Positions 4,223 through 28,306 of a stretch of DNA of 64,000 bases are shown piece after piece. The position numbers and the translations under genes were made by a program. Position 1 is the first letter of the stretch. Each line of letters opens with the position of its first letter. The notes below the pieces were generated by a model. The model did not search any database. It was not told the origin of the DNA and saw nothing but the letters and a program-made list of their open reading frames with translations. The DNA is taken from the NCBI GenBank assembly GCA_029258835.1, contig JAPDJY010000034.1, forward strand, positions 31,036 through 95,035, given 5' to 3'. This stretch comes from Thermoproteota archaeon (GTDB lineage Archaea; Asgardarchaeota; Jordiarchaeia; Jordiarchaeales; Freyrarchaeaceae).

Positions 4223-4351
4223 GCGGGGGTTGCCTAGTGGCTAGCAGGGCAAGAAGCACGCCCACAAAAGGCGCTGGCCTGGAGTTAGCTGCTACCTGAA
4301 AGCCAGTTCCCCGTTTGGGGAGCGTGGGTTCGAATCCCACCCCCCGCGCCA
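4223..4351 (+). tRNA. tRNA-Ser(GGA), two introns (D-loop 4243-4267; 37/38 4285-4300), CCA encoded
   Basis: Acceptor GCGGGGG/CCCCCGC, G73, CCA; T-arm GTGGG-TTCGAAT-CCCAC; long variable arm; anticodon stem CTGGC/GCCAG; BHB-like motifs. Confidence 0.85.
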
Positions 4352-4352
4352 C

Positions 4353-5683
4353 CTAATAACATCCCTCCTCAAGCTCCTTAAGCCAGCTGATTCTTTCCTT
4401 AACGGGTTCACCGAAGGGATTCTGGCGGGACTCCACGTATTCAGCTATCTTCAAGTGTGGGGGTGGAGCATAGCCCAGGCTTACTAGGCGCTGCCTGAGC
4501 TTCTCGATCATGGACGGTACATCTATTTCAAGGGGACACACCTTCACGCATGCGCCACATCCGGTACAGCTAAAGGCTACGGGGGCCGCTTTCTCAACTC
4601 CATGGAAGAACGCTGTGAATATTGCTCCTATGCCGCCGACATACCGGTAGCCCATCACCTGCCCTCCAACCTTACCGTAAACGGGACAGACGTTTAGACA
4701 CGCGCCACATCTAATACAATATGCCGCCTCTTTAAAGTTTGGGATCAAAGATCATACTACTTCTACCATTATCCAGCAGAACTAGGTGGAGTTCTCTGGG
4801 GCCATGTGCTCCGATGGTTGTTGTTAGTTCTATGTCGGCTGTCCTGCTTGGGTCGGTTATAAGTGAAACGTAGCAAGCCATTAGCTGCCCGGTTGCGTTT
4901 GGAGGGAGAAGCTGAACTATCGCCATAGCGTCATCGATCGTTGGGACAACCTTCTCTATACCCGCTACGCAGACGTGTACTGGCGGCACGTTGGAGACGA
5001 AGCGGGCATTCCCCTCATTTTCAAGTATAATCAAGTATAACAATAGTTCCTGTCTCCGCTGCTATTACGTTGGCACCGGTTATCCCGACGTCGGCGCTCA
5101 TGAATTCTCTGCGGAGCAGCTGCCTCGCCGTTAGAGCGAGAGCTTCGACGTTAGGTGAAACCCTTCTACCAGTGGCTTTAGAGAAGAGGGCTGCAACCTC
5201 CTCCTTAGGAACATGGATGGCGGGAACCACCATGTGCGTCGCCCTCTCCCCCCTAAGTTGCACTATGAATTCCCTAAGGTCTGTTTCAACGACCCTGAAC
5301 CCCTCCCTCTCTAAGGCCTCGTTTAAGTCCACTTCCTCCGTAACCATAGATTTACTCTTGATAATTAATTGAGCCTCGTGTTCAGAGCACACTTTAATAA
5401 CGTACTTCCTGAGCTCCTCGGAATCCTCTGACAGGTGAAAGCTGCATCCTAACTCTTCCGCTCTCTCCTTCAGAATGGAAATTAACTGGGTTAAATTCTC
5501 TATCGACCACGCTTTCACCTCTCTCGCCCTCTTCCTTAACCATTGAATGTATGGTAGCGATGCAACTGCTTCCTTTCTTGCCATTGAAAACCGTGCCGTG
5601 GCTCTTTCCAAAGCCAACTGTAGCCTTTCATCACGGATGGCACTGGAAACCTTTTCCTTATACTCTTCGTACCATTCACTCAT
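4353..5683 (-). pseudogene. lutB: LutB/LldF-like LUD + 4Fe-4S protein split into three ORFs by two frameshifts
   Basis: KSKSMVTEE, ETDL.EFIVQL, GITGAN, ENEGN, GAHGP.ELH, CIRCGACLNVCP lie collinearly across ORFs 5021-5683, 4732-5043 and 4353-4748; 10-bp tandem duplication at 5021-5040 and one extra base near 4738-4740. Confidence 0.85.
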
Positions 5684-6438
5684 GGTCCACTCGTCACCCC
5701 TCTTAACGCTTCCCAGACGAGTTCGGGTAGGTCGAGCACCCTTACATCTAACCCGTATCTATCCGCAGCGTCTCTAAGGTTCTTGACGCAGAAGGGACAT
5801 GCTGTAACCAGTACGTCGACCCCCACTGAGATGGCCTGTTTAAGCCTTTCAGCAGCTATAGCTAGGCTGAGATCGGTGAGAGCAGACCTAACGCCTCCCC
5901 CTGCCCCGCAGCAGTATGCTTCATCACGGCTTTTAGCCATCTCCACCAATGTGACTCCCGGAATGGCCTTTATAACCCTTCTTGGAGCCTCATAAATGCC
6001 TAAGTGTCGTCCAAGGTGGCATGGGTCACAATACGTCACCTTTAACCGTACTTCACCACCAAGCTCTACTCCACATTCACTTAGCACGTCCTCTATGAGT
6101 TGGGAGATGTGAAGCGTCTCGAAGGGAATGTTGCCTATAATTTCAGGATACTCACGAAACGTTCTGAAGCAACCTGCACACGACGTTACAACTACCTCTA
6201 CGTTCCTCCTCGAAATCCTTCTGACGTTTTCTCTAGCAATTTTCTTGGCAGCTTCTCTTTGACCCGTCCGAAGGAGAACCGAGCCGCAGCACCCTTCCTC
6301 CTCCCCAAGCATAGTGAACTCAACATCCAAAGACCTGAGAACCCTGACGGTTGCTTTCGCTCTCTCCTTTACACGGTATGAAGCCATGCATCCAGCCCAG
6401 TATAATATGTCTGCCCTTAACCAAAAGCATCCCTCCAA
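5680..6438 (-). CDS. CCG-domain Fe-S protein (LutA/HdrD-like)
   Basis: Two CCG motifs (EGCCG, YCCGAGGG), SCAGC, DPCHLGR, TACPFC; coupled to lutB. Confidence 0.88.
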   Translation of the reverse strand: MEGCFWLRADILYWAGCMASYRVKERAKATVRVLRSLDVEFTMLGEEEGCCGSVLLRTGQREAAKKIARENVRRISRRNVEVVVTSCAGCFRTFREYPEIIGNIPFETLHISQLIEDVLSECGVELGGEVRLKVTYCDPCHLGRHLGIYEAPRRVIKAIPGVTLVEMAKSRDEAYCCGAGGGVRSALTDLSLAIAAERLKQAISVGVDVLVTACPFCVKNLRDAADRYGLDVRVLDLPELVWEALRGVTSGP

Positions 6439-6498
6439 ACATTAAAAGTGAATCTCCCACATTTAGCCATAGTTATCTTGGTGGCTTCGCGTCCCAGC

Positions 6499-8841
6499 TC
6501 AGCGTACAAGCTCTACCACGTGCTTCTTGCCATCATCCACTAGACTGACCGTGACCTCTCCCTTTCCGGCTAAGAACCCTCCCTCCCTCCCGTCCATGAT
6601 CACTTCTTTAACGTCGTCAATGCATCTGAACATAACCTTGTAGCTTTCTCTTTCAGGATTATACTTTCCTTTCCTCTCGCCAATCTCCAACCTAACCCTG
6701 TCCCCAAAGACGCCACACGCCATCCTCGTTACCGCATATTCGGAATCCACGCTTTCCCCGTCATCCTCGTAAAGGTTAAACTCTCCATTTCCAGGGTAAA
6801 CTTCTAAGGTTAACTCGTCAACTTTCTTCTCTCCAACGTAACTCATAGGAGGCCATTCAGGTATCATCGCCCCTTCAGCGACAAAGAGCGGTATTCTTTC
6901 AAGGGGTGCTTCGACGTCCCCTTCCCAGGGGCCAATGTGCTTTTCCCCAGTCCAATAGTTGTACCATACGCCCTTGGGGAGATATACCTTCCTCAACCGT
7001 GCTCCTTTAACGTAGACTGGAGCCACGAGGATGAACGGTCCAAAGAGGAACTCGTCGCCTCTATAGCATCTCTCATCGTTCGGGTAATGTAGGAAAAGAG
7101 GCCTCATGATGGGCATTCCAGTTTGCAAATGCTCCCAGAAAAGTGAGTAAATATATGGCAGAAGAGCATAGCGTAGCTTTATGTAGGTTCGCGCAATTTT
7201 TTCAACGTTTTCACCGAAAACCCATGGCTCTTGCTTCCACCCCTTAAAGGTGTGGCTTCTGCAGAGAGGATAAAATACTCCAAGCTGGATCCACCTAGCG
7301 TACATTTCAGGCGTACATCTTGCTATGAACGGTCTTTTAAACGCCAGCTTGCCAAAGCCTCCAATATCCGCTCCGGCGAAGGGTACACCGCTAACACTTA
7401 AGTTAAGTAGCATCTCGACGCTCAGCAGTATATGATCCCACGTGCTCATGTTATCCCCCGTCCAAGTGGCAGCGTACCTCTGAATGCCAGCGTACCCAGA
7501 CCTCGTCAATATGAACGTCCTCTTATCGGGATGTACGGTGTTAAAGGCCTTAACAGTAGCGACGGCCTCTAAAAGTGCATAAACGTTTCGTACCTCTTCA
7601 AACGGTAGAAAGCGCTTTCCGTCATAGAAGACTACGTCGTCGATTTTAATGCGTGGTCGCCTCACCATCACCAAGTTGTCATATACTGGCTCATTCATGT
7701 CATTCCAGATACCCGAGACCCCCTCACGCAGTAGTTTAATGTAGAGGCTGGCCCACCACTCTCGAACTTCCTCTCTGGTTAGGTCCGGGAAAACCTCGCC
7801 GCCAGCCCAAACGACCCCTGTAAATAACTTCCCATTTCTCCTCCTCACGAAGTATCCTTTTTCGACGCCTTCCCTGTAAACATCGTAGTTCCTGTCCCTT
7901 TTCACTCCCACCTCGGCTATGGCTACAACCTTAACACCTTTCTTCATGGCTTCCCTAGTAAACCCCTTAGGATCCGGAAATCTTTTAGGATGCCATGTGA
8001 AAGCCCTGTAACCATCCATGTAGTCTATGTCGAGGTAGACCACGTCGCACGGTATATCACGCCGTCTAAACTCGTCTATGATTCTTAACACTTGATCCGC
8101 GCTTTTGTAACCCCATCTTGACTGTTGATATCCAAGCGCCCACAGGGGAGGAAGCGGGGTACGCCCTGTTAGAAGCGTATATTTCTCTATGACCTCAGAA
8201 GGACTGGGTCCAGGAATAACGTAATATTTTGCTTCTCCTCCATTAGCTGTCACAGTGTAGACTGTGGGATCGCTGAAGCCCATATCAAAAACCGTTTCGT
8301 AAGTGTTATCTAGAAAGAAGCCGTAGGAAAACCCCTTTCTTAATGCTATGAAGAAAGGTATGGACTTGTAAAGTGGATCTGTGTTGCGGTTGTAGCATTG
8401 AGGGTCGGTGTTCTTCATCACCAGGCGGCATCCCCTTTTATCAAACGTCTTAGCTTTCTCTCCGAATCCAAAATAGTGCTCGCCATCAGCTATTTTCTTT
8501 CTAATAGTGAAGCCGCCGTCCCATAGCTCGATTGGTGAGGCGTCACAGCAAAACTCTGCATTGTTAAACGTGAACGAGAATGTGCAGCTCCTCTTATCAA
8601 CGTAAACCACCACTTTTCCGTCCCCAGCTACTAGCCCATCTCCATCATCATTGACCGTGACTTTGACTTCTCCAATATCTTCTCTGACAACCGCCCAAGA
8701 CCCGTCTTCCTTAAGTGAGGTGGCTACCCTTAACTTGACACAGCCCCTACCGATGAAGGCAACTTCAGCCTCCCCATGCTCACATCTAAGAGTGAAATTC
8801 CTCTGGGAAGAATAGCTCTCCAAGACTCTCCCTATCTTCAA
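6499..8841 (-). CDS. Glycoside hydrolase family 31 (alpha-glucosidase-like)
   Basis: WNDMNEP nucleophile motif, WTGDN acid/base, GADIGGF, YLDIDYMD. Confidence 0.95.
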   Translation of the reverse strand: MKIGRVLESYSSQRNFTLRCEHGEAEVAFIGRGCVKLRVATSLKEDGSWAVVREDIGEVKVTVNDDGDGLVAGDGKVVVYVDKRSCTFSFTFNNAEFCCDASPIELWDGGFTIRKKIADGEHYFGFGEKAKTFDKRGCRLVMKNTDPQCYNRNTDPLYKSIPFFIALRKGFSYGFFLDNTYETVFDMGFSDPTVYTVTANGGEAKYYVIPGPSPSEVIEKYTLLTGRTPLPPLWALGYQQSRWGYKSADQVLRIIDEFRRRDIPCDVVYLDIDYMDGYRAFTWHPKRFPDPKGFTREAMKKGVKVVAIAEVGVKRDRNYDVYREGVEKGYFVRRRNGKLFTGVVWAGGEVFPDLTREEVREWWASLYIKLLREGVSGIWNDMNEPVYDNLVMVRRPRIKIDDVVFYDGKRFLPFEEVRNVYALLEAVATVKAFNTVHPDKRTFILTRSGYAGIQRYAATWTGDNMSTWDHILLSVEMLLNLSVSGVPFAGADIGGFGKLAFKRPFIARCTPEMYARWIQLGVFYPLCRSHTFKGWKQEPWVFGENVEKIARTYIKLRYALLPYIYSLFWEHLQTGMPIMRPLFLHYPNDERCYRGDEFLFGPFILVAPVYVKGARLRKVYLPKGVWYNYWTGEKHIGPWEGDVEAPLERIPLFVAEGAMIPEWPPMSYVGEKKVDELTLEVYPGNGEFNLYEDDGESVDSEYAVTRMACGVFGDRVRLEIGERKGKYNPERESYKVMFRCIDDVKEVIMDGREGGFLAGKGEVTVSLVDDGKKHVVELVR

Positions 8842-8888
8842 GATATGCCCCCTCGCCTATGTTCTTCAACGCCTCTAAGCTCCCTTTC

Positions 8889-9338
8889 TCATATGTCGAG
8901 GACGAACACGAGGCGTGCTTCATCTTCCCCAACATTAATTTCCATTTCGTGATACGTTGCTGCTTTGACATCGGTCTTTGAGACGTGCTTTTCAGGGTTA
9001 AACCTTTCACCCCTCGCCGTTGCGGCCAGTCTGTACCGTCCATCCTCCCTTCTTATCTCTTCAACGTTAACCACAGAGAAGATCAGCCCCTCGGAGTCGG
9101 TCAAATATATGAATTCTTCAAGCCAGTTGTAAAGTAAGCTCTCTAGGTCCTCCCCCTCCACCTCTATTCTCCTTTCCACCTCAGGGTTAACCCTTGAGGT
9201 ATCCGTCATTAACTCGTAGAGTGCCTTAGCAGCCTCCTCGAAAGCCTCCTCCAAGCTTCCCCCTTTGGCCTCTATTTTAGCGTCCGCCGTATGCTCAAGA
9301 AACCTAAAGCCACCCATCCATCTCATCCCCCTCTTCAT
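8889..9338 (-). CDS. Archease (RtcB tRNA-ligase cofactor)
   Basis: EHTAD N-terminal motif, DVKAATYH, C-terminal VLDI. Confidence 0.95.
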   Translation of the reverse strand: MKRGMRWMGGFRFLEHTADAKIEAKGGSLEEAFEEAAKALYELMTDTSRVNPEVERRIEVEGEDLESLLYNWLEEFIYLTDSEGLIFSVVNVEEIRREDGRYRLAATARGERFNPEKHVSKTDVKAATYHEMEINVGEDEARLVFVLDI

Positions 9339-9509
9339 CCTCCCTTTATCACTTCAACTATGAAAAAGCTTTGCCTTCTCTCCAAGCACGCTAGCCATAC
9401 CATGTAACGCCTTAACTTGATGCTAGAGCTCTCAGATGGTATCTGTATAATACCAAGCTTCAAAACATTAACCCTCCTTGGTTTCAGGTAAAGGGCTGGA
9501 GGTTCTCGG

Positions 9510-9998
9510 TTGAAATACGTGAAAGTGGCCTTCTTAGGTATGCCCTCCGTTGGTAAAACAAGCATTATAAGGCTTCTAAGCGACAATAAGGTAGTTAAAA
9601 GCTATGACCCAACTATAGGGGTAGACTTTGGCTCCTTATCTGTCGGTGAATGCGAGGTCTGCCTCTGGGACTTTGCGGGGCAGAAGAGGTTCCGTTTCCT
9701 CTGGGACGACTTTCTGAAAGGGGCAAAGGTGATCTTCGCCGTGACGGACTCAACTCCTAAGAACGTTTTAAACACTAGGGAAATAGTAAGCGAGGTGAAA
9801 GAGAAAACCGACGCGTTTCTCATCGGGATAGCCAACAAGCAAGACTTGCCAGGAGCCATGAAACCGAAGCAAGTAGAAAGCATACTTAGAATACCCACCT
9901 ATGGGATGGTTGCCATAGACCCTAGGAAAAGAGTTAAAATGTACAGCATATTAAGGCAGGCACTAGAGCAGGCAGTGCTAGCTGTGGCGACAAACTAA
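9510..9998 (+). CDS. Ras/Arf-like small GTPase
   Basis: G1 GMPSVGKT, G2 PTIG, G3 WDFAGQ, G4 NKQD; 162 aa. Confidence 0.92.
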   Translation: MKYVKVAFLGMPSVGKTSIIRLLSDNKVVKSYDPTIGVDFGSLSVGECEVCLWDFAGQKRFRFLWDDFLKGAKVIFAVTDSTPKNVLNTREIVSEVKEKTDAFLIGIANKQDLPGAMKPKQVESILRIPTYGMVAIDPRKRVKMYSILRQALEQAVLAVATN

Positions 9999-10044
9999 AA
10001 CCTTTTTTAAGCATTCTGATGGTGTTATCCCAGAACCCGGTGAA

Positions 10045-10404
10045 GTGTCTTGCATGGCTGATTTCGGGCTTGGACGTCCAGAGAAACCTGTCAGAATACC
10101 GCCCGCAACCCCCAGAAAAATTAAGGACTTATCTCGGTCAGATGGTAGGGTGAGGATAATGGGCGTCGTGGTTGAATCATCATCTAACCACGTGGTAATT
10201 GACGATGGAACTGGTATGGTCATGATTAACTTGGCAAGTAGCACTCCGCCTCCCTCCACCGGGAAATACGTCAGGGTTTTCGGGCTTGTGACATCTGACG
10301 AGAAAGGCGGCCTCTACGTGAACGCTGAGATCCTACAGGACATGAGCTCCCTAGACCTTGACCTTTACAAGCGCGTCCGGAAGGTGATCGAGTCGGAACG
10401 TTAA
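10045..10404 (+). CDS. Single OB-fold protein, RPA small-subunit-like
   Basis: VRIMGVV...IDDGTG...GKYVRVFG OB pattern with C-terminal helix; directly upstream of PCNA. Confidence 0.7.
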   Translation: MSCMADFGLGRPEKPVRIPPATPRKIKDLSRSDGRVRIMGVVVESSSNHVVIDDGTGMVMINLASSTPPPSTGKYVRVFGLVTSDEKGGLYVNAEILQDMSSLDLDLYKRVRKVIESER

Positions 10405-10464
10405 AAAGCTATGCGCAAGCATTAAGATTAACTAGGAGGGAACACGTTTTTCTCTTCTAGACGA

Positions 10465-11241
10465 ATGGGATTGGAGGGGAAAGTTTTGGCTTTCAAGATT
10501 AAGTTTTCAGATGCCAAGTTGTGGAGGCGTATAGTTGAAGCTGTCAGCGTCCTCGTTGATGAAGCCGTCTTCAAGGCGGATAATTCATCTCTTAGAGCGA
10601 GGGCTATGGATCCAAGTCACGTAGCAATGGTTGACGTTTACTTGCCAGCCGGGATCTTTGACGAATATGAGTGTAGCGGAGAAGCCGTTATGGGCGTCAG
10701 CTTGGATGAAATGTCTAAGATCGTGCGTAGGGCCGGTGGAGGCGACGAGCTTGAAATGGTGCTTGATGAAGAAGCAAACAGTCTCCGTGTACGGCTTAAG
10801 GGGGCTGCAACTAGGACATTCAAGATCTCTCTCCTAGACCTAGGCGCCGAGGAGCCCCCAACTCCATCGATCACTTTTAACACCGAGGTCAAGCTGATCA
10901 CTAACTCCCTTGTTCAAGCGTTGAAGGACGCTGAACTTTTCAGTGACCATGTTGAGATTTCAGCCACCCCTGAAGGAGTATTCATTGCGGCGTCAGGCGA
11001 CACAAGCGGCGTCGAAGTGAAGATAGACCGGGGAAGCGAGGCCCTGCTGGAGTTAAACGTAACCGAGCCGTCAAGAGCCATCTATGCCCTAAGCTACCTT
11101 ACCGATATGATTAAAGCCGCGGCGATAAGCGACACGGTAACCTTACAGTTTTCAACGAACATGCCTTTAAAACTTGAGTTCCGCGTTCTCGGCGAGGGTA
11201 AAGTAACATACTGGTTGGCTCCTCGAATCGAGGCAGAGTGA
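10465..11241 (+). CDS. pcn: PCNA sliding clamp
   Basis: AMDPSHVAMV and C-terminal YWLAPRIE; 258 aa. Confidence 0.97.
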   Translation: MGLEGKVLAFKIKFSDAKLWRRIVEAVSVLVDEAVFKADNSSLRARAMDPSHVAMVDVYLPAGIFDEYECSGEAVMGVSLDEMSKIVRRAGGGDELEMVLDEEANSLRVRLKGAATRTFKISLLDLGAEEPPTPSITFNTEVKLITNSLVQALKDAELFSDHVEISATPEGVFIAASGDTSGVEVKIDRGSEALLELNVTEPSRAIYALSYLTDMIKAAAISDTVTLQFSTNMPLKLEFRVLGEGKVTYWLAPRIEAE

Positions 11242-11294
11242 AACCGTAACATTAAATTTCTGCTACTCATATTTTTATTTCAGAGTTCCTTCTA

Positions 11295-12392
11295 GTGCCA
11301 CCTCCAAAGGAGGCTATAAAAATAATCTCCCGCCAGTTCCTCGCTAAGTACCCTTTCACTTCTGAGGCTCAGAAATGTCTTCAAGATTTAAATCTCCACT
11401 TAGAAGATCTGCTGGATCCATGCTACAGGCCAGTCTTAGAGAGGGGGAGGGAGCGGGTTTTAGAGGCACTCGACGAAGGCGTAGTTTCATGCAGGATGGA
11501 AAGACCGGATGTTGAATTCCTCTCCTTCCCGGTGGCAAGGCTAATAGTTGAAGCGGTAAGAGACAACTTCCTCAAGCACAGGTTTGCAACTGCTGAATCT
11601 AAGAGAGCTCAGAAACTATTTGAGGAGGAGGGAGAGGAAACCCTTCTCGTCATAGCCCGGAAGACCTTTAACGTTGACGTTGAATGGGTTAGAGAGGAAG
11701 TGGATGGTAGGGTATATCACTTTAAAGTGCACTTCTCAGACTACTTAAGGTACGCTTCAAGCTTCCACGATCCATACTGGAAGCTTGTTAACCGCCTTCT
11801 CTTAAAAGGTTACGTTTACCTTGTAAAGGACGACTTTGCCCGCCTCTTATCAGGAGCCGTCGAGAAAAAATTGTCGGAAAGCCGAGGAGCCCCCGCTAAG
11901 CTTCCACCAGAAATAAGAGTAATAGTTGATGAGGTCTCATTGAAGGCGGCTTCCAGACGTGGAAGGTACGCCTTTGAAGACGTTAAGGGCACGGTGGTTG
12001 AGGAGGCTTTCCCCCCGTGCATAGCATCGATCATTTCGGCGCTGCGAAGCAACAAACCATTATCTCACAGTGCCAGGTTCACCTTAACATCGTTCCTTCT
12101 CCACGTAGGCTACCCTGTCGATAAAATAGTGTCCCTTTTCAGCGGTGTTCCAGACTTCAGGGAGGATTTAACTAGGTACCAAGTTGAGCATATAGCAGGT
12201 ATGAAGAGTGGAACAAGGTATACTCCCCCCAAATGTGAAACCCTAAAAACTTACGGGTTATGCCCTCTCCCAGAAGGCTGCGGGAACGTTAGGCACCCCC
12301 TAGAATATTACAGACGCCACAGGCGAGAACGCTTAGCCAGTAGGGGGGTAGTAGAGAATGAGCGGAAAGGCGAAGACCGAGTTTTACCTTAA
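11295..12392 (+). CDS. priL: DNA primase large subunit
   Basis: LAKYPF, WKLVNR, FPPCI, H.ARF, TRYQVEHI, Y.PPKC...C Fe-S ligands. Confidence 0.95.
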   Translation: MPPPKEAIKIISRQFLAKYPFTSEAQKCLQDLNLHLEDLLDPCYRPVLERGRERVLEALDEGVVSCRMERPDVEFLSFPVARLIVEAVRDNFLKHRFATAESKRAQKLFEEEGEETLLVIARKTFNVDVEWVREEVDGRVYHFKVHFSDYLRYASSFHDPYWKLVNRLLLKGYVYLVKDDFARLLSGAVEKKLSESRGAPAKLPPEIRVIVDEVSLKAASRRGRYAFEDVKGTVVEEAFPPCIASIISALRSNKPLSHSARFTLTSFLLHVGYPVDKIVSLFSGVPDFREDLTRYQVEHIAGMKSGTRYTPPKCETLKTYGLCPLPEGCGNVRHPLEYYRRHRRERLASRGVVENERKGEDRVLP

Positions 12393-13596: not shown

Positions 13597-13600
13597 GAGG

Positions 13601-14970: not shown

Positions 14971-15042
14971 AGAACTATTATGTTTCAACGTGAAGCCACC
15001 GACGTTTTAAGCCGGGAAAGTGTGGTTTGTGGAGGTCTCCTT

Positions 15043-16730: not shown

Positions 16731-16791
16731 CTTAATGAAACCTTTAAAAGCTTGATCGCAAATCTAAAAATCGTGGCGAGGTGAAAACGTC

Positions 16792-17103: not shown

Positions 17104-17143
17104 GTCTCAGCTTTAAAAACTTAAACATCGGGAATCTTTCTTT

Positions 17144-19912: not shown

Positions 19913-20000
19913 CTTCCTGCCAGCTGCTGTAACCTCTTAAGCCACCGCAATCTAAAAACCTTCCTGTCAACATTAAGTAACGTGAAAATCGCATCCTTTC

Positions 20001-20690
20001 ATGGGGGTTAATAGATTAATGTACGAGTTAAACATTAAAAGGCTTCTTGCTGCAGCAGAGGAATTAAGGTACCTTCTCGATAGGGGATACCCCCGCGATG
20101 GAGCCTTAAACTTCGTCGCAAACCATCATAGACTAGACAAAAAACACAAAATCGTCCTTCTCCGTAGCGTCTACAGTAGCAAGGAGATCGAGGAGAGGAA
20201 AAGGAAGACAGTACCCTTCCAGAAGCTTAAAGGGAACGTGCTATCCGTAGACGGATACAACGTGTTGATAGTCCTTGAAACCATGCTTAGAAATCAGCCA
20301 CTTCTCGAAGGGGACGACGGATACGTAAGGGATATCTCCGGGGTGCACGGAAAGCACAAACTATCAAACCACACGATTCAAGCCGTGAACATCCTCCTAG
20401 AAGAGCTTAAGAAAGCCCAGCCAAGGGAAGTACTCATATTCTTCGACAGCCCGGTAAGTAAGAGCGGAGAACTAGCTGGAACGGTCAGAAACCTCATGAA
20501 AACCCGCGGGGTGAAGGGTGATAGTGTAGCGGTAAGTCAAGCGGACAATGCAGTAATAAGGACAGGCGAGATAGCCCTTACAAGTGACAGCGTAATACTC
20601 CAGAAAGCACGAAAGTGCTTCGACATAGCAGGACACATAGCTAGAAAAAGAGGATACGCATGGATCATATCTTTTAAGCATCCTCCTTAA
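20001..20690 (+). CDS. DUF434-family PIN-like protein
   Basis: LRYLLDRGY, VDGYNVLI, DGYVRD, SPVSKSGEL, TSDSVI. Confidence 0.8.
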   Translation: MGVNRLMYELNIKRLLAAAEELRYLLDRGYPRDGALNFVANHHRLDKKHKIVLLRSVYSSKEIEERKRKTVPFQKLKGNVLSVDGYNVLIVLETMLRNQPLLEGDDGYVRDISGVHGKHKLSNHTIQAVNILLEELKKAQPREVLIFFDSPVSKSGELAGTVRNLMKTRGVKGDSVAVSQADNAVIRTGEIALTSDSVILQKARKCFDIAGHIARKRGYAWIISFKHPP

Positions 20691-20886
20691 AAGGTGAAAA
20701 AGTGTAGCTTATCTTCAATTCATGCAATCCACATCAAGCTAGCAACCTTCTAAGCTGGAATATTCTTGTGGAAGCGCGGCAGTAAGTATAAACCCTCACC
20801 ATTTCCAACTTCATGCAACCAATAGAATTGATAAAACATAACACATATAAAACGCTCTTGTGGAATAAATTACCGAACAGAAGGGT

Positions 20887-21038
20887 GGTCCCGTCGCCTA
20901 GCCAGGAGCTGCAGACTGAAAGGGCGCCGACTTGCAAGAGCGTAAACGTAGGCGTAAGCCTTCTAAGCCGGAGTTCCCGGGTTCAAGAACCACCACTAAG
21001 CAACTTGGTGGTGGTTGAAAGTCCCGGCGGGACCACCA
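20887..21038 (+). tRNA. tRNA-Arg(TCT), three introns (D-loop ~20909-20920; 29/30 20930-20957; 59/60 20988-21021)
   Basis: Acceptor GGTCCCG/CGGGACC plus ACCA; spliced anticodon arm CCGGC-CTTCTAA-GCCGG; clean BHB TTCA/TGAA with ACCACCAC/GTGGTGGT outer helix; D-loop boundary less certain. Confidence 0.9.
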
Positions 21039-21051
21039 CCTTTTCCCCGTT

Positions 21052-22035
21052 TCAACCCTTAAAGAAGTGTTCGTATCCTTTTTGAGGTATATTAACCCAG
21101 CCCTTTTCTGGATGCTTAAATATGACCTTCTTTTCTTCAATGACCCTCCCCATTTCGTAGAGGTTGCCTCCGACCTTCCTCACGGCGTCCACAGCCTTCA
21201 CCCATTTATCGTTTGGTACCGTTACGACTAGCTCGTATTCTTCGCCGCCGTAGAATGCTAGCTCGTAAGGGTCTAACCGGTTTTCCTCCGCGAAGGACGA
21301 AACCTCAGGGTGTATTGGGACGTGTTCTATGGCGAACCCGACATTGCTTGCGTTGGAGAGCTCATGGAGTGATGCAGCCAGCCCATCACTGCTATCTATG
21401 CTGGAGGACACATATCCCCCTTCCGCCAGCACAACTCCCTCATTAACCCTCGCCTTGGGATTGTAAACTGCCTCCACGCACTTTCTGACTCCATTCCTTC
21501 CTAACCCGCTTAAAAGAACCTTTAAACCTACCGCGGTCATGCCGAATAATCCGGTGGTAGCCACTATATCGCCTAGTTTCGCTCCCTCTCTCGAAATAAC
21601 TCTTCTAGCTAAGCCTATCACCGCCCCAGAGATAACCACCTCGTCCGCTTCGTTCACGTCTCCTCCAAGATAACATGCACCATAAGCCTTCGACGCCTCA
21701 ACGATTCCTTCAACGACCTCTAAGACATCCCTAACCTTAAAGTTCCTTGGAAAGCCAAACGCGTACATCCCCCCAATAGGCTTAGCCCCCTTAGCAGCCA
21801 AGTCGCTTACATTCATTACAACCGTTTTCCATCCCACCTGACGCCACGTCATTCCTGGAGGAACATCCGTCCTTGCAACCAACATGTCACAGTTAAACAC
21901 AAGTATCCCCTTTTCCAAGTGAACAGCCGCAGCATCGTCTCCAAACGGCAAAGCCACGCCTTCACACTCCGCTAGTATGCTCAAAATCCTCTTCACCAGC
22001 TCCTTCTCGCCTAAATCCCCAACCTTCACAAGCAA
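21052..22035 (-). CDS. thiL: Thiamine-monophosphate kinase
   Basis: GDDAA, NVSDLAAKGA, GGD, DSSDGL, GGEEYEL, GYEHF. Confidence 0.95.
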   Translation of the reverse strand: MLVKVGDLGEKELVKRILSILAECEGVALPFGDDAAAVHLEKGILVFNCDMLVARTDVPPGMTWRQVGWKTVVMNVSDLAAKGAKPIGGMYAFGFPRNFKVRDVLEVVEGIVEASKAYGACYLGGDVNEADEVVISGAVIGLARRVISREGAKLGDIVATTGLFGMTAVGLKVLLSGLGRNGVRKCVEAVYNPKARVNEGVVLAEGGYVSSSIDSSDGLAASLHELSNASNVGFAIEHVPIHPEVSSFAEENRLDPYELAFYGGEEYELVVTVPNDKWVKAVDAVRKVGGNLYEMGRVIEEKKVIFKHPEKGWVNIPQKGYEHFFKG

Positions 22036-22313
22036 CCCCTCCGCTTAAAGGCTCAATCTAAAAACAAACATGCACCATAACCATCTACAAAAGAGGAATG
22101 CTCAATAAATTAACTCAACTCCTCAACACCACCATCAGTCAACCAATAAGGGATTCCTACGAAAAGGAATTACGCCCACCATAAGTCCAATGAAGATCAA
22201 TTCCCATCCAACTCAGGCAAACACAAGAAAACTCCATCTAACCACACGTCGCCAGATGCCTCCTAGATCCCCCTAAAGTTGCCACCCACCCCAACAGGAA
22301 AAGAACAGGTGGA

Positions 22314-22409
22314 AGCCCCGGGCGGGTATTCCGACTTGCTTCGAACCCGCGACCTGCGGCTCACCCGAACACTTACGAGGCCGCCGCTCTACCACTGAGC
22401 TACCGGGGC
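22314..22409 (-). tRNA. tRNA-Thr(CGT), two 12-nt introns (37/38 22362-22373; 59/60 22328-22339)
   Basis: GCCCCGG/CCGGGGC acceptor, U73, GCGGC-CTCGTA/A-GCCGC anticodon arm, BHB helices CTCG/CGGG and TTCG/CGGA. Confidence 0.9.
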
Positions 22410-22454
22410 TCCGCTCTCCCATATTAAAAGTTCAAAATATAAACCTTTTCTATC

Positions 22455-22672
22455 TGCCTTGCGAAGCAGTTAGGTATTTGGTGGTATTTGTGGGTGTTGG
22501 TGAGTGAACAGGTGGAGGCTGCCCCGGATGCTCAGCCGCCTAGCGGCCTAGAGGGCGGAACCCTCAGATGAGGAGCTCCTAGGCTCCCCCGATAGCCCAC
22601 GAGACCACCCAGGCCGATGCGTGGAAAGGAGTAGACATCCACAAAAGCCCATCTACCCCAAAACCCGCTCCG
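22455..22672 (+). mobile_element. Non-autonomous IS607/IS605-like miniature element, copy A
   Basis: Shares TGCCTTGCGAAGCAGTTA start, GT-rich repeats, a GATG.GG.GCTCC..GG.T.CCCCGA.AGCCC core and a CA-rich end with 51897-52085; right boundary approximate. Confidence 0.65.
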
Positions 22673-23091
22673 TTACATAATGTTTTTCCTCTCTTCATTT
22701 ACAGACTATGTTGTAAAATGAACTTCGTAAAATGAACTCTTCACGTGCCCCATTCTGCCTACAACCCTCCGCTGCCACGTGGATAAAGGTAGCTTTTGAA
22801 AAAGAAGTCTGGCTGCATTAAACCACTTCTTATCCTGACCCTCATACACGAAAGATTTGCCTTCCCTCTTCTAAATCAGTTCATTATATTTCTAGGTTGC
22901 TAAAAGTTAATTGCCTCTAGCTTAAAGTTATTTACCGTCTATAAGTACCAGTAGAGTTTAAATTAATTAAGGATCCCCTATGGAAGAAGGGGAAGGGAGC
23001 CTAAATACCTCAAATAATTGCTGATAACAACGAATATTTTTTCTAGAAAATTTATTTTCAATTCTTCTTAATATCTTTATCTTGAATTATT

Positions 23092-23134
23092 TTTTATTGA
23101 ATATGGAATTTTTTATTGAATATTTTATTGAATA
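23092..23134 (+). repeat. Three direct copies of TTTTATTGAATA upstream of the orphan ORF
   Basis: Read directly at about 23092, 23111 and 23123. Confidence 0.8.
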
Positions 23135-23181
23135 CGGAAGCCGTCTTCGTTGGAGGTGTGTTGCAGAAGCTAGGAGGATGA

Positions 23182-23577
23182 GTGGGGAAGATGTGGAAGA
23201 AATGGTTTGTGAGAAAGCCGGCAGGAACGTCCTCTAACGTTTCTGACGAGGCAAAGGAGGTAGCGATACGTCACTACGAGCTTCTACAGAAAGGAGATTA
23301 TGAAGGGTGGGTTAGCACGTTATGCTTGTGGCTTCAGGAAGTAGCAGGCAGGTCGGGTAGCAGTCCGTATTTCTGGTGGAAGACTGGACGCCACTATGTT
23401 GAAGACTATGGTGTATACTACGAGTATTATAAGGAGGGTAAGTCGTCATTTCCTAATACTAGAAAATTCTTTTTTAAGCGTAAGAACCCTGATGGAAGCG
23501 ACAGAGGGATGCCTGTTCCCATAACAGTTAAACTGGATGAGGATGGAGTTTGGAGAGTAGATCAAGCCAGTTACTAA
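23182..23577 (+). CDS. Hypothetical protein, possibly NTF2-like fold
   Basis: GGAGG RBS; N-terminal helix HYELLQKGDYE and C-terminal VKLDEDGVWRVD strand pattern. Confidence 0.6.
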   Translation: MGKMWKKWFVRKPAGTSSNVSDEAKEVAIRHYELLQKGDYEGWVSTLCLWLQEVAGRSGSSPYFWWKTGRHYVEDYGVYYEYYKEGKSSFPNTRKFFFKRKNPDGSDRGMPVPITVKLDEDGVWRVDQASY

Positions 23578-24164
23578 CCCAATTTTTTCCTTCTTCACTT
23601 TATCCAGTTGGAACGGAACCTTTCCCTTCTCTGGTCATTCTTCGGAGAAGTGGAATGATAGTGAAATTACGCAACTTAACCGGCCTATCCGTAGCTCTAA
23701 GTGCTTAGGGGGCATTTATTGTAGTGTGGAGTCGGGTGGAAGAAGCTATGGGGCATGTGCCAGCAAGAGCAGGAATCAGATTCGATGTTAAATTTTTGAA
23801 GCTGCGTAAACATCTGTTCAGAGAAAGCGTTAATTTTAATGTTAACTGGCAAGTGTTAAATGCAAGGGTTAATGTGGTCCCTAATAGATTGCATGCGTAG
23901 CTATTAACAATGGATTAATAGTTTTAACTGGAAAAGGGGAAACGTGGTCGGATAGTTGGAGGGTTTACGTGTGGCTGCTCTAGGGTGCTCCATTTACATG
24001 GCGGTGGAGAGGGGCATGGAGGAAGAAGGACCACTATGTGACAAGGAGAACACAGGGAAATGAAGGACCTAAAAGGTAAATTTTGAAAGCAAAAGGTTAA
24101 TAGGTTTCAATTTTCTCTCATTAAACGGTCACAGTCCTCTTCTAAGTTTTTAAGGTGTTCTGTA

Positions 24165-25526
24165 ATGGTTCTGGAAGCTCTTGGTGAAGGCTTAAGGAGC
24201 GCTATAAATAAGCTTCTCCGGTCAACGGTTGCTGACCGGGCGGCTGTAAAAGAGCTTGTAAAGGAGATACAGCGCGCCCTCCTTTCCTCCGACGTCAACG
24301 TTGAACTAGTCCTTAAATTGTCTGAGAGGATAGAGAAGAGAGCCCTCGAGGAGAAGCTCCCTCCAGGGGTAAGCAGGAGGGAGCACATAGTTAAGATCGT
24401 GTATGAGGAGCTTGCTAACATAATCGGCAGCAGGGCGCGTGGCTTGAAGATCAAGCCTAGCCAGCCGAACGTTATAATGCTCGTCGGGATTCAGGGTTCA
24501 GGTAAAACAACTACGGCGGCGAAGCTTGCAAGGTATCTGTTCAAGAGAGGGTTCAAAACCGCCCTTGTATGCGCCGACACGTTCCGGCTTGGAGCATACG
24601 AGCAGCTCAAGCAGCTGGCCGAGATGGCTGGCATACCATTCTACGGTGAGCTAGGCGCTAAGAACAGCGTGGCAGTCGCTAAGAGGGGGATCAAGCACTT
24701 TCAGGAGAAGGGGTACGAGGTCATAATCGTTGACACAGCAGGCAGACACAAGGAGGAAAGTGAGCTAATGGCTGAAATGAAGGAGATAGCTAGGGCTATA
24801 AAGCCAACCGAGATAATGCTTGTCGTGGATGGGACATTAGGGCAGCAGGCGATGTCCCAGGCTAAAGCCTTCAAGGAAGCCACAGACATAGGATCCATAA
24901 TTGTAACAAAGCTTGACGGCTCAGCTAGAGGTGGAGGCGCCCTTTCCGCGGTAGCCGCAACGGGAGCTCCGGTCAAGTTCATAGGCACAGGGGAGAAAAT
25001 AGATGATATAGAGGCCTTCGATCCGGTCAGGTTTGTCAGCCGGCTCCTAGGGATGGGCGACCTTCAAGCCCTCCTCGAAAAGGTAAGGGAAGCGGAGATA
25101 CGACCTGAAAAGGAGGATGCCGTCGTCCTCCTAACAGGCCGTTTTACATTAAAGGACTTCTATAAGTGGATGGAGCAAGCTAGGAAAATGGGTCCCATAG
25201 GGAAAATTTTCGAGCTCATGGGGATTTCCAGCATCCCCAAAGAGCTTAAGGATATGGCTGAGACTAAGCTGGACAGGTGGAAGGTCATAATGCAGTCCAT
25301 GACGGAGGAGGAACTCGAAGACCCTAAGATCCTTAATAGGTCGAGAGTTAACAGGATCGCTAGGGGCTCTGGTACGACGCCTAGGGAGGTTAAGGAGCTC
25401 ATAGACCAGTACTTTACGGCGAAGAAGATGGTGAAAGCCCTAGGGAAAAGAAGGCTGAGAGGGAAAGGCCTTCCCATACGGGGCATACCTCTTGAGCAGC
25501 TTGAAAAGCTTGTGGGCCGCCTATGA
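24165..25526 (+). CDS. srp54: Signal recognition particle protein SRP54
   Basis: GIQGSGKTTT, DTAGR, TKLDG, Met-rich M domain with RIARGSG. Confidence 0.97.
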   Translation: MVLEALGEGLRSAINKLLRSTVADRAAVKELVKEIQRALLSSDVNVELVLKLSERIEKRALEEKLPPGVSRREHIVKIVYEELANIIGSRARGLKIKPSQPNVIMLVGIQGSGKTTTAAKLARYLFKRGFKTALVCADTFRLGAYEQLKQLAEMAGIPFYGELGAKNSVAVAKRGIKHFQEKGYEVIIVDTAGRHKEESELMAEMKEIARAIKPTEIMLVVDGTLGQQAMSQAKAFKEATDIGSIIVTKLDGSARGGGALSAVAATGAPVKFIGTGEKIDDIEAFDPVRFVSRLLGMGDLQALLEKVREAEIRPEKEDAVVLLTGRFTLKDFYKWMEQARKMGPIGKIFELMGISSIPKELKDMAETKLDRWKVIMQSMTEEELEDPKILNRSRVNRIARGSGTTPREVKELIDQYFTAKKMVKALGKRRLRGKGLPIRGIPLEQLEKLVGRL

Positions 25527-26092
25527 GGAGCTTCTACCTGCTATCTCACACTTTCCCGTCTCCGCTGAAGCCCCAAATAGATAGGGGCATTGTGGACGAG
25601 GAGACCGCAGAAATCTGTTCGTGTGTAAGAGCCGCCCTCTTCCTCTCCCACGACATAAGAAGAGACGTTCAAGTACACCTAATAGCTTCAGATGAAAACA
25701 GGGAGATAGTGATTGACGGGAGCAAGGTCAGGTACCTCTCCCCTGACGAGCGTTCCATCTGCATGTTACTCATAAAAATGAATGAGAAGAAGAGCTCTAG
25801 AAGGCCGTGGCGGGGAGTAACAGCTAAACCGTTCACCTCCCTTCAGGACTCCATCCCTCCGGGAACGGTGCTCGTCGCCCTTAGCGGCCATGGAAGAGAC
25901 GTGCGGCAACTGAAAAGCTTAAAGGATGTAAGCGTAGTAGTTCCATTATACCCTCTTTCAAGGGACGAGGAACAGTCATTGAAGCAGCTCAGAGCGATTC
26001 CCGTTAAACGGAGGAAAACCCTCCCAAGTCACTTCATAGTGCTTCTAAACAATTATTTAGACCTCTTGGAGGCTCAGCCATGTACCCCATAG
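25523..26092 (+). CDS. trmY: tRNA (pseudouridine54-N1)-methyltransferase TrmY-like
   Basis: ALFLSHDIRRD and PDERS motifs; next to pus10; C-terminal knot diverged. Confidence 0.75.
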   Translation: MRSFYLLSHTFPSPLKPQIDRGIVDEETAEICSCVRAALFLSHDIRRDVQVHLIASDENREIVIDGSKVRYLSPDERSICMLLIKMNEKKSSRRPWRGVTAKPFTSLQDSIPPGTVLVALSGHGRDVRQLKSLKDVSVVVPLYPLSRDEEQSLKQLRAIPVKRRKTLPSHFIVLLNNYLDLLEAQPCTP

Positions 26093-27480
26093 TGAAAGCT
26101 CTTGAAATACTAAAGAAAATCCCCCTCTGCAATAGTTGCCTAGGTAGGCAGTTCGCCCTCCTAGGCATGGGATCAAATAACCCGAGCAGAGGGCATGCCT
26201 TAAAGCTAACCCTAACAATGACCGCACACTACATGCTCAGGGAAAATCCCGAGGAGGCCGTCAAGATCCTCAAGGTTCTCGCCTCCAACGGAATGTTCCA
26301 GCCCGCGGTGGAAACCCTACAGAAGGAAGGAATTCCGATAGAGGTCAGCGAGAATAAATGCTACATCTGCGGTGGATTAATGCTCAGAAAAAGGGAAATC
26401 GCCCAGAAGATAGCTTCCCTCCTAGAAAATTATGACTACAGAACACTTCTGATAGGATGTCACGTACCAATAGACCTCACTGAGAGGGACGATGAAGTTA
26501 AAGCCGCACACCAAGTGGATACGGGAGAGTCGCTTAAGGCAGAGTTCAACAGGGAGGTTGGGAAAATAGTCTCAGCTCTTACCGGTAAACCAGTAGACTT
26601 CAAAAACCCTGACATAGTAGCCGTCGTAAACCTTGAAAACCTAGAAGTAACGATCAACTCAAACCCGATTTACATTGGAGGACGCTACCTAAAATACGTA
26701 AGAGGAATTCCGCAAACCAAATGGCCATGTAAAGCATGCAAAGGGCAAGGATGTCCCCGATGTGGAGGAACAGGAAAGATGTACCCTGAATCCGTGGAAG
26801 AACTCGTAACAGCCCCAATCCTCGAGGAAACCGGAGGGGAAGAAGCAAAGTTCCACGGGGCAGGAAGAGAAGACATAGACGCGAGAATGCTCGGCACAGG
26901 CCGCCCCTTCATAGTAGAAGTGAAAAACCCAAAGAAACGCAACATAGACCTCCAAAAACTACAGGACAAAATAAACCAGTACGCCCAGGGGAAAGTCGAA
27001 GTCCACTCCCTCCACTTCGCAGTAAAAGAACAGGTAAGACAGCTGAAAGCCCTATCCCAGTTCGCCCCTAAAACCTATAAAGCCATAGTTAAAGTCGACA
27101 GGGAGATAACCTCAGAAGAGCTTAAAGCACTTGAACAAAAACTCACAGGACAAACAGTAAGGCAGAAAACGCCAAGAAGGGTAGCCCACAGACGGGCCGT
27201 GAAAACAAGGCTCAAAAAGGTCTACGAGGCACACGTAAACCAAGTAGACCCTCACACCTTCGAGCTAATTGTAAAATGTCAAGGTGGACTTTACGTCAAA
27301 GAACTAGTAACAGGGGACAGGAGAAGAACACGGCCAAGTGTATCAGAAATACTAAATGCGAAAGCAGAGTGCACCCAACTAGACGTAATAGACGTAGGAG
27401 CAACAATACCCCCACAGGAAGAACAAAACCAAAAAGTTTATTTATCACCCACCTACTCACTCGATCACGAGGGCCCGTAG
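26080..27480 (+). CDS. pus10: tRNA pseudouridine 54/55 synthase Pus10
   Basis: LC.SCLGRQF, THUMP region, GRYLK..RGIPQT, HGAGREDIDARM, GGLYVKEL. Confidence 0.96.
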   Translation: MYPIVKALEILKKIPLCNSCLGRQFALLGMGSNNPSRGHALKLTLTMTAHYMLRENPEEAVKILKVLASNGMFQPAVETLQKEGIPIEVSENKCYICGGLMLRKREIAQKIASLLENYDYRTLLIGCHVPIDLTERDDEVKAAHQVDTGESLKAEFNREVGKIVSALTGKPVDFKNPDIVAVVNLENLEVTINSNPIYIGGRYLKYVRGIPQTKWPCKACKGQGCPRCGGTGKMYPESVEELVTAPILEETGGEEAKFHGAGREDIDARMLGTGRPFIVEVKNPKKRNIDLQKLQDKINQYAQGKVEVHSLHFAVKEQVRQLKALSQFAPKTYKAIVKVDREITSEELKALEQKLTGQTVRQKTPRRVAHRRAVKTRLKKVYEAHVNQVDPHTFELIVKCQGGLYVKELVTGDRRRTRPSVSEILNAKAECTQLDVIDVGATIPPQEEQNQKVYLSPTYSLDHEGP

Positions 27481-27590
27481 CTCAGCCAGGTAGAGCGACA
27501 GGCTCATATCAGCCTACAACTGTTGAGAAACCTGTTGGTCCAGGGTTCGAAAGCATGGAGCTCCTCCAGCCGGAAATCCCTGCGGGCCCA
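27471..27590 (+). tRNA. tRNA with CAT anticodon, likely tRNA-Ile2, two introns (37/38 27509-27529; 59/60 27552-27576)
   Basis: GGGCCCG/CGGGCCC acceptor typical of archaeal Ile, A73; ACAGG-CTCATA/A-CCTGT; BHB helices CTCA/TGAG and TTCG/CGGA. Confidence 0.88.
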
Positions 27591-27893
27591 TCAACCCTCA
27601 ACATACAAAGAACTTATAATTCCTCTTTTTCATTTTCCTTGACAACCCTCACTGGGAAGCCGCTGAAGGTTAAGGGTTTCTAGGTAAAGGCATTTTTCGG
27701 GTATGTCAGGATGTAAAAAGGCAGTCAGCCAGAAACCCCAAGCAATACCTATAAGCTTCAAGCTTGATCTGTTACGTTTCCTCTCAGCAATATGGAAAAA
27801 GCGCTTAAAACCGTCGTGAAAACGTTCCTCAGCTATAGGTCTGAATAAACGCATAAAGTTTTTAAAATGCTTGACTTCTATTCTACTCTGAGT

Positions 27894-28022
27894 GCCTCGG
27901 TGGTGTAGCCCGGCCAAGGTTACGCTGATAGCATAAGGGGCTTAGAGGCTACGTCCTCGCCCAATCGACCCCTTGACCCGGGAACCACATGTTCGGGACT
28001 TCAAATCCCGGCCGAGGCACCA
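27894..28022 (+). tRNA. tRNA-Glu(TTC), three introns (D-loop 27917-27929; 34/35 27944-27964; 53/54 27983-27999)
   Basis: GCCTCGG/CCGAGGC plus ACCA; GTGTAGCCCGG D-arm; spliced AGGGG-CTTTCGA-CCCCT; BHB helices CGGC/GCTG, GGGC/GCCC, CCCG/CGGG. Confidence 0.9.
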
Positions 28023-28128
28023 CACCACATCCTCCACCCTGAGTAAAAACGAAAAACCTCGGTTACCAACAAGAAGCCGGTTAAGACTTTTAGGTTTTAA
28101 TGGTGGTGCTGGCTTAGAAGGAGTTTTG

Positions 28129-28306
28129 TGGCGCCGGGGGCAGGATTTCCGTTTGCATCTCGAACTTTCGCTCCCTTGGCTGCTGTTTCTAGCCCAGGGA
28201 TCTGCGACCACCAGGTCGCTGCGTACATGTACATAACAGCCTGGCGCTGACGGCCCGGCGCGCACGTGGCGCCTTACACCGTCTACCTGAACTGAGCTAC
28301 CCCGGC
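28129..28306 (-). tRNA. tRNA-Asn(GTT), four introns (D-stem ~28281-28248; 37/38 28233-28217; 52/53 28201-28166; 59/60 28158-28146)
   Basis: GCCGGGG/CCCCGGC, G73, CCA; removing 34+17+36+13 nt leaves a standard 78-nt cloverleaf with CCAGG-CTGTTAA-CCTGG. Confidence 0.88.

Follow-up and report, generated by a model that had tools for sequence, protein, structure and literature searches.

Multiply interrupted transfer RNA genes in a 64-kb genome segment of a Jordarchaeales archaeon, with predicted bulge-helix-bulge introns throughout the assembly

Heavily interrupted transfer RNA (tRNA) genes have been described before in Asgard archaea. Valentin-Alvarado et al. 2024 (PMC11291895) found that 92-95% of the tRNA genes carry introns in complete genomes of Freyarchaeia and Atabeyarchaeia; the introns often occupy non-canonical positions, and more than half of the genes contain more than one. 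The same study treats Freyarchaeia and Jordarchaeia as the same group. Goswami et al. (bioRxiv, October 2026; 10.64898/2026.10.13.758758) analysed 90 Asgard genomes and counted, in two Jordiarchaeia families, 2.0-2.4 intervening sequences per gene, with 97-98% of genes interrupted and up to five interruptions in one gene. They reported that D-arm inserts are missed by tRNAscan-SE, that the bulge-helix-bulge (BHB) splicing motif is enriched six- to ten-fold, that gains were repeated, and that nothing pointed to transposition of introns, to a link with mobile elements or to reverse transcription; two paralogs of the splicing endonuclease EndA were present in 44 of 60 genomes. Earlier, Kaneta et al. 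2018 had assigned an L1-loop-bearing (alpha-beta)2 EndA to Asgard archaea and predicted undetected disrupted tRNA genes there. Here we describe six tRNA genes, for Ser, Arg, Thr, a CAT anticodon, Glu and Asn, that lie in a 64,000-nucleotide (nt) stretch of a draft Asgard genome (the window; G000:C4:31036-95035 in our numbering) and that together carry 16 predicted introns.

Between them, the published Freyarchaeia and Atabeyarchaeia genomes have 92-98% of tRNA genes interrupted and more than half to 74% multiply interrupted, with a mean of 2.0-2.4 and a maximum of 5 introns per gene. For the genome studied here the corresponding values were 96%, 80%, 2.6 and a maximum of 5, and the D-arm held 30 of its 117 introns; its mean is slightly higher, and nothing of substance differs from the published Jordarchaeia. 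As in the work of Goswami et al., intron positions turned over between close relatives and no intron families crossed isotypes. Our census uses the BHB motif, whereas theirs was motif-free, and the genome apparently represents a separate genus of the smaller-genome family. Heavy tRNA interruption in this lineage, the role of the BHB, the type of EndA and the absence of a mobile-element link are already published. Because the lineage-level phenomenon is in print, our finding adds little as a discovery.

Thermoproteales, a group from a different phylum, likewise have multiple short non-canonical BHB introns and an (alpha-beta)2 EndA with a Crenarchaea-specific loop(Sugahara 2008 and Fujishima 2010, as cited in the Asgard studies above). 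There, intron sequence families extend across tRNA types, a sign of transposition (28%, Goswami 2026). Our genome showed no spread of this type: only four intron pairs reached at least 80% identity, all of them between Ala or Leu isoacceptors. The density of introns is greater, at 2.6 per gene compared with 1.54 in the richest Thermoproteales genome quoted by Goswami 2026.

The six genes are invisible to standard tools. A first-pass annotation made from the letters of the window had predicted that standard annotation would miss such genes; ARAGORN returned no tRNA in the 64 kb, and Rfam at gathering thresholds also returned none. A lax Rfam search gave a single sub-threshold tRNA match of 25.1 bits, at 22337-22409(-), within the gene for tRNA-Thr. 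Scanning the window for a perfect 7-base-pair (bp) acceptor helix, a T-loop-like motif and high G+C content gave six loci: 4223-4347(+), 20887-21034(+), 22315-22409(-), 27471-27589(+), 27894-28018(+) and 28133-28306(-). The limits given in the first-pass annotation, 4223 and 28306, are the first base of the Ser gene and the first base of the Asn gene. Before any encoded CCA, the genes span 4223-4348(+), 20887-21035(+), 22314-22409(-), 27471-27590(+), 27894-28019(+) and 28132-28306(-). Each gene was read against the canonical cloverleaf, which yielded the following models.

4223..4351, + strand: tRNA-Ser(GGA), encoded CCA, 2 introns, mature length 85 nt; ARAGORN calls the spliced product Ser gga
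4243-4267, +: Ser intron 1, 25 nt, D-loop 20a/21, BHB central helix 4/4
4285-4300, +: Ser intron 2, 16 nt, 37/38, central helix 3/4, outer helix 6 bp, inner helix 3 bp
20887..21038, + strand: tRNA-Arg(TCT), encoded CCA, 3 introns, mature length 75 nt; spliced product called Arg tct
20909-20920, +: Arg intron 1, 12 nt, D-loop, weak BHB with central helix 3/4, register +/-1
20930-20957, +: Arg intron 2, 28 nt, 29/30
20988-21021, +: Arg intron 3, 34 nt, 59/60, central helix 4/4, T-stem as outer helix, 11-bp inner helix
22314..22409, - strand: tRNA-Thr(CGT), 2 introns, mature length 72 nt; spliced product called Thr cgt
22362-22373, -: Thr intron, 12 nt, 37/38, central helix 4/4
22328-22339, -: Thr intron, 12 nt, 59/60, central helix 4/4
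27471..27590, + strand: tRNA with CAT anticodon (probably Ile2), 2 introns, mature length 74 nt; spliced product called cat
27509-27529, +: CAT intron, 21 nt, 37/38
27552-27576, +: CAT intron, 25 nt, 59/60
27894..28022, + strand: tRNA-Glu(TTC), encoded CCA, 3 introns, mature length 75 nt; spliced product called Glu ttc
27917-27929, +: Glu intron 1, 13 nt, D-loop 20b/21, central helix 4/4
27944-27964, +: Glu intron 2, 21 nt, 34/35, central helix 4/4
27983-27999, +: Glu intron 3, 17 nt, 53/54, central helix 4/4
28129..28306, - strand: tRNA-Asn(GTT), encoded CCA, 4 introns, mature length 75 nt; spliced product called Asn gtt
28249-28282, -: Asn intron, 34 nt, D-stem 22/23, central helix 3/4
28217-28233, -: Asn intron, 17 nt, 37/38
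28166-28201, -: Asn intron, 36 nt, 52/53
28146-28158, -: Asn intron, 13 nt, 59/60

The 16 introns are thus distributed as two in Ser, three in Arg, two in Thr, two in the CAT gene, three in Glu and four in Asn. Four lie at 37/38, four at 59/60 and four in the D-arm, with one each at 29/30, 34/35, 52/53 and 53/54, and five are only 12-13 nt long. The counts per gene and the sites are exactly those proposed in the first-pass annotation, which had also remarked on the several introns of 12-13 nt; they were borne out here by in silico splicing, by a structure solver and by comparison of orthologs.

The models were tested in four ways. When the 16 segments were removed in silico, ARAGORN called all six products as full-length tRNAs, and none of them had a stem mismatch. 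We then scored the BHB in its standard arrangement, a 4-bp helix in which four exon bases pair with four intron bases, each set placed 2 nt upstream of a cut (the 5’ cut for the exon bases, the 3’ cut for the intron bases). This central helix was fully paired (4/4) in 13 introns and reached 3/4 in the remaining three (Ser 37/38, Arg D-loop and Asn D-stem). Control boundaries shifted by 3-9 nt gave 4/4 pairs in 1.8% and 3/4 or better in 15% of cases, so the BHB pattern at the 16 introns is beyond chance. Third, an independent solver that walks a cloverleaf template along the gene, and is free to jump any BHB-compatible segment, returned the same intron set as its top solution for every one of the six genes. 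For the Arg 59/60 intron, the solver picked the register 20988-21021, in which hand analysis also found a full BHB motif.

The geometry of these introns was regular. At 59/60, the outer helix is the T-stem, and the central helix comes from pairing of the intron with bases 54-57 of the T-loop, the same arrangement as at the canonical 37/38 site, where the anticodon stem and bases 32-35 play these parts. The introns of 12-13 nt consist of one bulge base, a loop of 5-6 nt, four helix bases and two bulge bases; therefore, they have almost no inner helix. A stricter recursive BHB splicer of the SPLITS type, coupled to ARAGORN, solved Thr, the CAT gene and two of the three Glu introns, made a wrong excision in the Glu D-loop, and failed on Ser, Arg and Asn because the flanking helices of the D-arm introns are only 0-2 bp.

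The fourth test, the comparison of orthologs, was independent of the splicing motif. Four genomes of a sister genus (G001-G004) had orthologs of all six genes, three of which stood in the same cluster order. Exons were identical or nearly so (Glu 75/75, Asn 70-71/75, CAT 72/74), and inserts differed in sequence and length. The mature Glu sequence was identical at 75 of 75 positions in five genomes, with insert lengths of 13-17, 18-28 and 17-30 nt; Arg had three inserts in the same places in all five, with conserved exons; and the Ser orthologs had inserts at the same two sites with different sequences. Other inserts came and went. In G003 and G004 the sequence ...GGCTCATAACCTGT... runs without a break over the position of our 37/38 insert in the CAT gene, and G001 has an insert at 30/31 in place of 37/38. 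The 37/38 insert of Asn was absent from all four relatives, in which the 22/23, 52/53 and 59/60 inserts were present. For Thr, the relatives lacked the 37/38 insert at the exact predicted junction and carried a D-loop insert that is absent from our genome. These presence/absence differences fix the junctions without use of the splicing motif.

Metagenomic data agreed with these models. Public contigs from different studies spanned the complete three-gene cluster unbroken, every intron included, and all seven of the positions that varied fell in introns or spacers. Alignments to compact tRNAs of other organisms ended at 27508 for the CAT gene, the predicted exon end, and compact Glu tRNAs joined 27917 to 28000, again the predicted exon ends.

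Two of the six genes required a choice of identity. The Ser gene can also be read with anticodon UGA and an intron at 33/34; the 4-bp helix is then perfect, but the anticodon stem is broken and A37 follows A36. What is generally known of archaeal tRNAs favors the GGA reading with G37 and a 37/38 intron, a preference that is not decisive. In its intron mode, ARAGORN took the Ser gene for Gly-ccc and the CAT gene for Ser-aga; both calls were rejected. A compact CAT gene elsewhere in the assembly (C2:74657) is the initiator, as shown by A1:U72 and by the three G-C pairs at the foot of its anticodon stem. In the CAT gene of the window the first pair is G1:C72, and the acceptor stem and discriminator exactly match those of tRNA-Ile(GAT) from the same genome. 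It matched tRNA-Ile(GAT) at 59 of 75 positions and the initiator at 44 of 77; no elongator Met gene was found for comparison. Its sequence makes Ile2 a plausible identity.

We asked whether the window is typical of its genome. The assembly is a draft metagenome-assembled genome (MAG) of 2.72 Mb in 91 contigs, with 94.7% completeness and 6% contamination. Default ARAGORN found eight tRNAs in it, and the Rfam model found 12 over its cut-off, only two of them of compact length. Our intron-aware census began with 4,238 acceptor-pair candidates; these were filtered on the T-arm, run through the cloverleaf/BHB solver and checked with ARAGORN, which yielded 49 loci. As a decoy, the reversed genome gave 14 solutions from 4,287 candidates, all with 4-5 introns and scores of 4.0 or less, and the final cut-off was one that no decoy solution passed. 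At this cut-off there were 45 tRNA genes with 42 anticodons and 117 introns, a mean of 2.60 per gene. The numbers of genes with zero to five introns were 2, 7, 11, 15, 7 and 3; 43 of 45 (96%) had at least one and 36 of 45 (80%) at least two. Only two uninterrupted tRNA genes were recovered in 2.7 Mb. Intron density was 2.67 per gene in the window and 2.59 in the remaining genome. The proliferation is genome-wide, and the rest of the genome does not have ordinary tRNAs.

The commonest sites in the census were 59/60 (14), 37/38 (12), 53/54 (8), 22/23 (8), 58/59 (7) and 30/31 (6). The introns were 10-64 nt long (median 19), and CCA was encoded in 34 of the 45 genes. TATA-like boxes occurred 22-45 nt upstream of 23 of the 45 genes, compared with 4.3% of random positions. 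The only near-identical introns were those shared by Ala-TGC and Ala-CGC (three introns) and by Leu-TAG and Leu-GAG (C2:100068, C30:28794, C51:1988, C51:3614). Their confinement to isoacceptor pairs indicates that whole intron-bearing genes were duplicated, rather than that introns moved between genes.

The organism belongs, by its sequence affinities, to Jordarchaeales, in the class Jordarchaeia of the Promethearchaeati (Asgard). Its SRP54 protein was 83% and 81% identical to those of Candidatus Jordarchaeales and Jordarchaeum MAGs; Odinarchaeia followed with 63%. DNA of this organism is present in metagenomes from hydrothermal vents and sediments. The first-pass annotation had guessed at an Asgard archaeon and named Thermoproteales as the placement that would make the introns unsurprising; the contig does not place there. 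It had also inferred a lineage-wide proliferation. With the standard Rfam tRNA model at E <= 1e-4, five genomes of the window's family had 5-11 tRNAs each and six of the sister family in the same order had 5-10, so that all 11 genomes of the order fell within 5-11; most other Asgard families had 22-40. The low-count exceptions among the other Asgards were a 2.8-Mb single-contig genome with 13, presumably of Atabeyarchaeia, and an 80%-complete genome with 12.

Introns at such sites need a splicing endonuclease of broad specificity, which the first-pass annotation had called for and which the genome is predicted to supply. Two EndA paralogs are present, each with PF01974 and PF02778. EndA-1 (190 amino acids, aa; encoded on G000:C1) aligns over residues 11-190, its whole length, to the catalytic subunit of Aeropyrum pernix (A. 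pernix; 3p1z_B, E 4e-46). It keeps the catalytic His and has the GPGIDHAP motif, and its K45 and K47 align to loop residues K44 and R46 of A. pernix with no gap through the loop. Hirata 2011 (PMC3241643; PDB 3P1Z) showed that this Crenarchaea-specific loop, K44 especially, confers cleavage at the D-loop and at relaxed motifs. EndA-2 has Ala at the position of the catalytic His of M. jannaschii and keeps the Tyr and Lys positions. The two enzymes compare with A. pernix EndA in the catalytic motif and the loop basic residues of EndA-1 and in a second paralog without the catalytic His; in sequence, however, EndA-2 resembles the enzymes of M. kandleri and M. jannaschii more than it does crenarchaeal beta subunits. 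A catalytic paralog together with a structural one gives the pattern of a predicted (alpha-beta)2 EndA whose catalytic subunit carries the lysine of the Crenarchaea-specific (L1) loop. The longest open reading frame of EndA-2 includes a low-complexity Ser/Thr/Pro-rich extension of ~110 aa upstream of the conserved domains. Its real start is probably an internal Met, which gives a protein of ~197 aa (gene at L094:862-1788, G000:C6).

The other processing genes that we located are these:

G000:C1:78966-80273, outside the window: RtcB tRNA ligase
8889..9338, - strand: archease (RtcB activator), Pfam PF01951, E 6e-49
25523..26092, + strand: TrmY-family RNA methyltransferase, PF04013, Pfam E 4.5e-15
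26080..27480, + strand: Pus10 tRNA pseudouridine synthase, Pus10_C E 2.7e-73, archaeal Pus10 THUMP domain E 1.3e-26

The Pfam matches bear out the archease, trmY and pus10 calls of the first-pass annotation. The 3’ end of pus10 overlaps the first 10 bases of the CAT tRNA gene.

We conclude that the six tRNA genes of the window are very probably functional genes of a Jordarchaeales archaeon, and that each contains 2-4 short introns of the archaeal type that are predicted to be spliced by EndA. Each gene would be transcribed from its own TATA-type promoter as a long precursor, which would fold at each intron into a BHB, two 3-nt bulges around a 4-bp helix. The introns of 12-13 nt have a minimal, relaxed form of this motif, and the 59/60 site in the T-loop copies the geometry of the 37/38 site in the anticodon loop. 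An (alpha-beta)2 endonuclease, with a lysine-bearing specificity loop on its catalytic subunit, would cut in both bulges, and RtcB with archease would join the exons. The gene structures, their BHB geometry, the pattern of conservation and the presence of the enzymes are observations; from them we infer that the introns are cut out and the exons joined in the living cell, and in what order.

Several points weigh against this conclusion. Three inserts have a central helix of only 3/4, the Arg D-loop and Asn D-stem inserts have flanking helices of 1 bp, and the register of the Arg D-loop insert is ambiguous by one base. Excision and the exact cut sites are predictions from gene structure. The census picks introns by BHB compatibility, and for this reason its BHB statistics are not independent; it did not recover tRNAs for Trp, Gly-TCC/CCC or elongator Met, and 43 real candidates, together with 29 decoy candidates, were left unscored at the 8-second limit. 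The placement of the organism is based on one marker protein, SRP54, and on kinship labels.

The weakest motifs raise a narrower alternative: that the Arg and Asn D-arm inserts, with their degenerate BHBs, are not removed by EndA from the primary transcript but depend on prior removal of other introns, leave by another route, or are kept as an enlarged D-loop. In addition to the poor helices of these two inserts, the Arg insert has a 3’ ACTGA that is conserved in five genomes and is unexplained by simple BHB geometry, and the preprint of Goswami et al. deliberately speaks of 'intervening sequences', which tRNAscan-SE renders as enlarged D-loops. However, removal of the D-arm inserts restores canonical D-loops (A14, G18G19, A21) and D-stems without mismatch, and the inserts vary in sequence and length between genera while the exons are constant. 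The Thr D-loop insert of the relatives is absent here, which argues that such inserts are dispensable for the mature tRNA, and EndA of the A. pernix type cuts D-loop and relaxed motifs (Hirata 2011). We consider this alternative unlikely.

Slightly less likely again is the suggestion, made in the first-pass annotation, that the introns are kept because they protect tRNA genes, and especially their 3’ halves, from the integration of mobile elements. A masking role of this kind has reportedly been proposed for Thermoproteales and Nanoarchaeota. The T-arm, where many integrases recombine, does hold 36 of the 117 introns, but 30 lie in the D-arm and another 36 in the anticodon arm, so there is no concentration toward the 3’ end. 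The six genes have housekeeping neighbors and no adjoining integrase, and the sole intact tyrosine recombinase of the assembly is on a contig without any census tRNA. Goswami et al. likewise saw no enrichment of mobile elements near intron gains. These observations, all indirect, lend the masking idea no support.

That the interrupted loci are decaying pseudogenes or assembly artefacts, with working tRNAs elsewhere, is very improbable: ARAGORN and Rfam do fail to recognize them and the assembly is an incomplete, partly contaminated draft, but interrupted genes are the only source of nearly all of the 42 anticodons, their exons are under strong constraint across genera, independent metagenome contigs reproduce them, and promoter-like boxes are enriched upstream.

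Splicing by EndA, our preferred explanation for the tRNA genes, may extend beyond them. A gene resembling LutB, with an LUD domain and a 4Fe-4S dicluster, lies five bases downstream of the tRNA-Ser gene at 4353-5683 (-). It is broken into three overlapping frames (5021-5683, 4732-5043 and 4353-4748); homologs in the sister family are uninterrupted proteins of 433-447 aa. A 25-nt insert at 5035-5059 has the shape of a BHB, with a central helix of 4/4, an outer helix of 2 bp and an inner helix of 3 bp. Once it is excised, the first two frames join into 308 aa, and reading resumes at the very position where the second piece begins to match Pfam. For the second junction, the best candidate compatible with a BHB covers 16 nt at 4744-4759, with a central helix of 4/4 and an outer helix of 3 bp; this junction could also be a plain frameshift. 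With both inserts removed, a single frame is obtained that is collinear with the sister-family homologs. The tRNA-Ser loci of the relatives are not syntenic for this gene. It is possible, though a little short of an even chance by our estimate, that tRNA interruption is one face of genome-wide BHB introns that also split protein-coding genes.

Other features of the window deserve mention. Archease is adjoined by a small GTPase of the Arf/Ras/Roc family at 9510-9998 (+), one of the "eukaryotic signature" proteins typical of Asgard archaea. A G+C-rich non-coding stretch at 22420-22700 adjoins the gene for tRNA-Thr. Within a gene-poor region of 1.1 kb, the segment 22960-23140 is very A+T-rich, with words like TTATTGAATA repeated several times in direct orientation; it might serve in regulation or resemble a replication origin. 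A non-coding gap of 587 nt (23578-24164) lies directly upstream of SRP54 and has no Rfam match, and we wondered whether it is the site of an interrupted signal recognition particle RNA or of another RNA gene. At a lax threshold, 22420-22700 and 23580-24160 gave no Rfam match, and neither showed nucleotide conservation in the loci of relatives that were compared. The gene at 53185-57117 (+) encodes a protein of 1310 aa with an unusual architecture, in which a winged helix of the TrmB type at the N-terminus precedes ~1200 residues of coiled-coil repeats resembling apolipoprotein.

Jordarchaeia tRNA genes are among the most fragmented known, and the present results confirm this for each gene separately, with evidence independent of the splicing motif. 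Since ARAGORN and Rfam miss most of these genes, estimates of completeness and analyses of codon usage and recoding in Asgard MAGs are affected. The introns of 12-13 nt and the weak D-arm motifs would offer convenient test substrates. A literature search found no report of routine BHB splicing of mRNA in an Asgard archaeon, and the novelty, if any, would lie in the LutB-like gene. If that case is true, a permissive machinery of EndA, RtcB and archease would splice mRNAs routinely in an Asgard archaeon.

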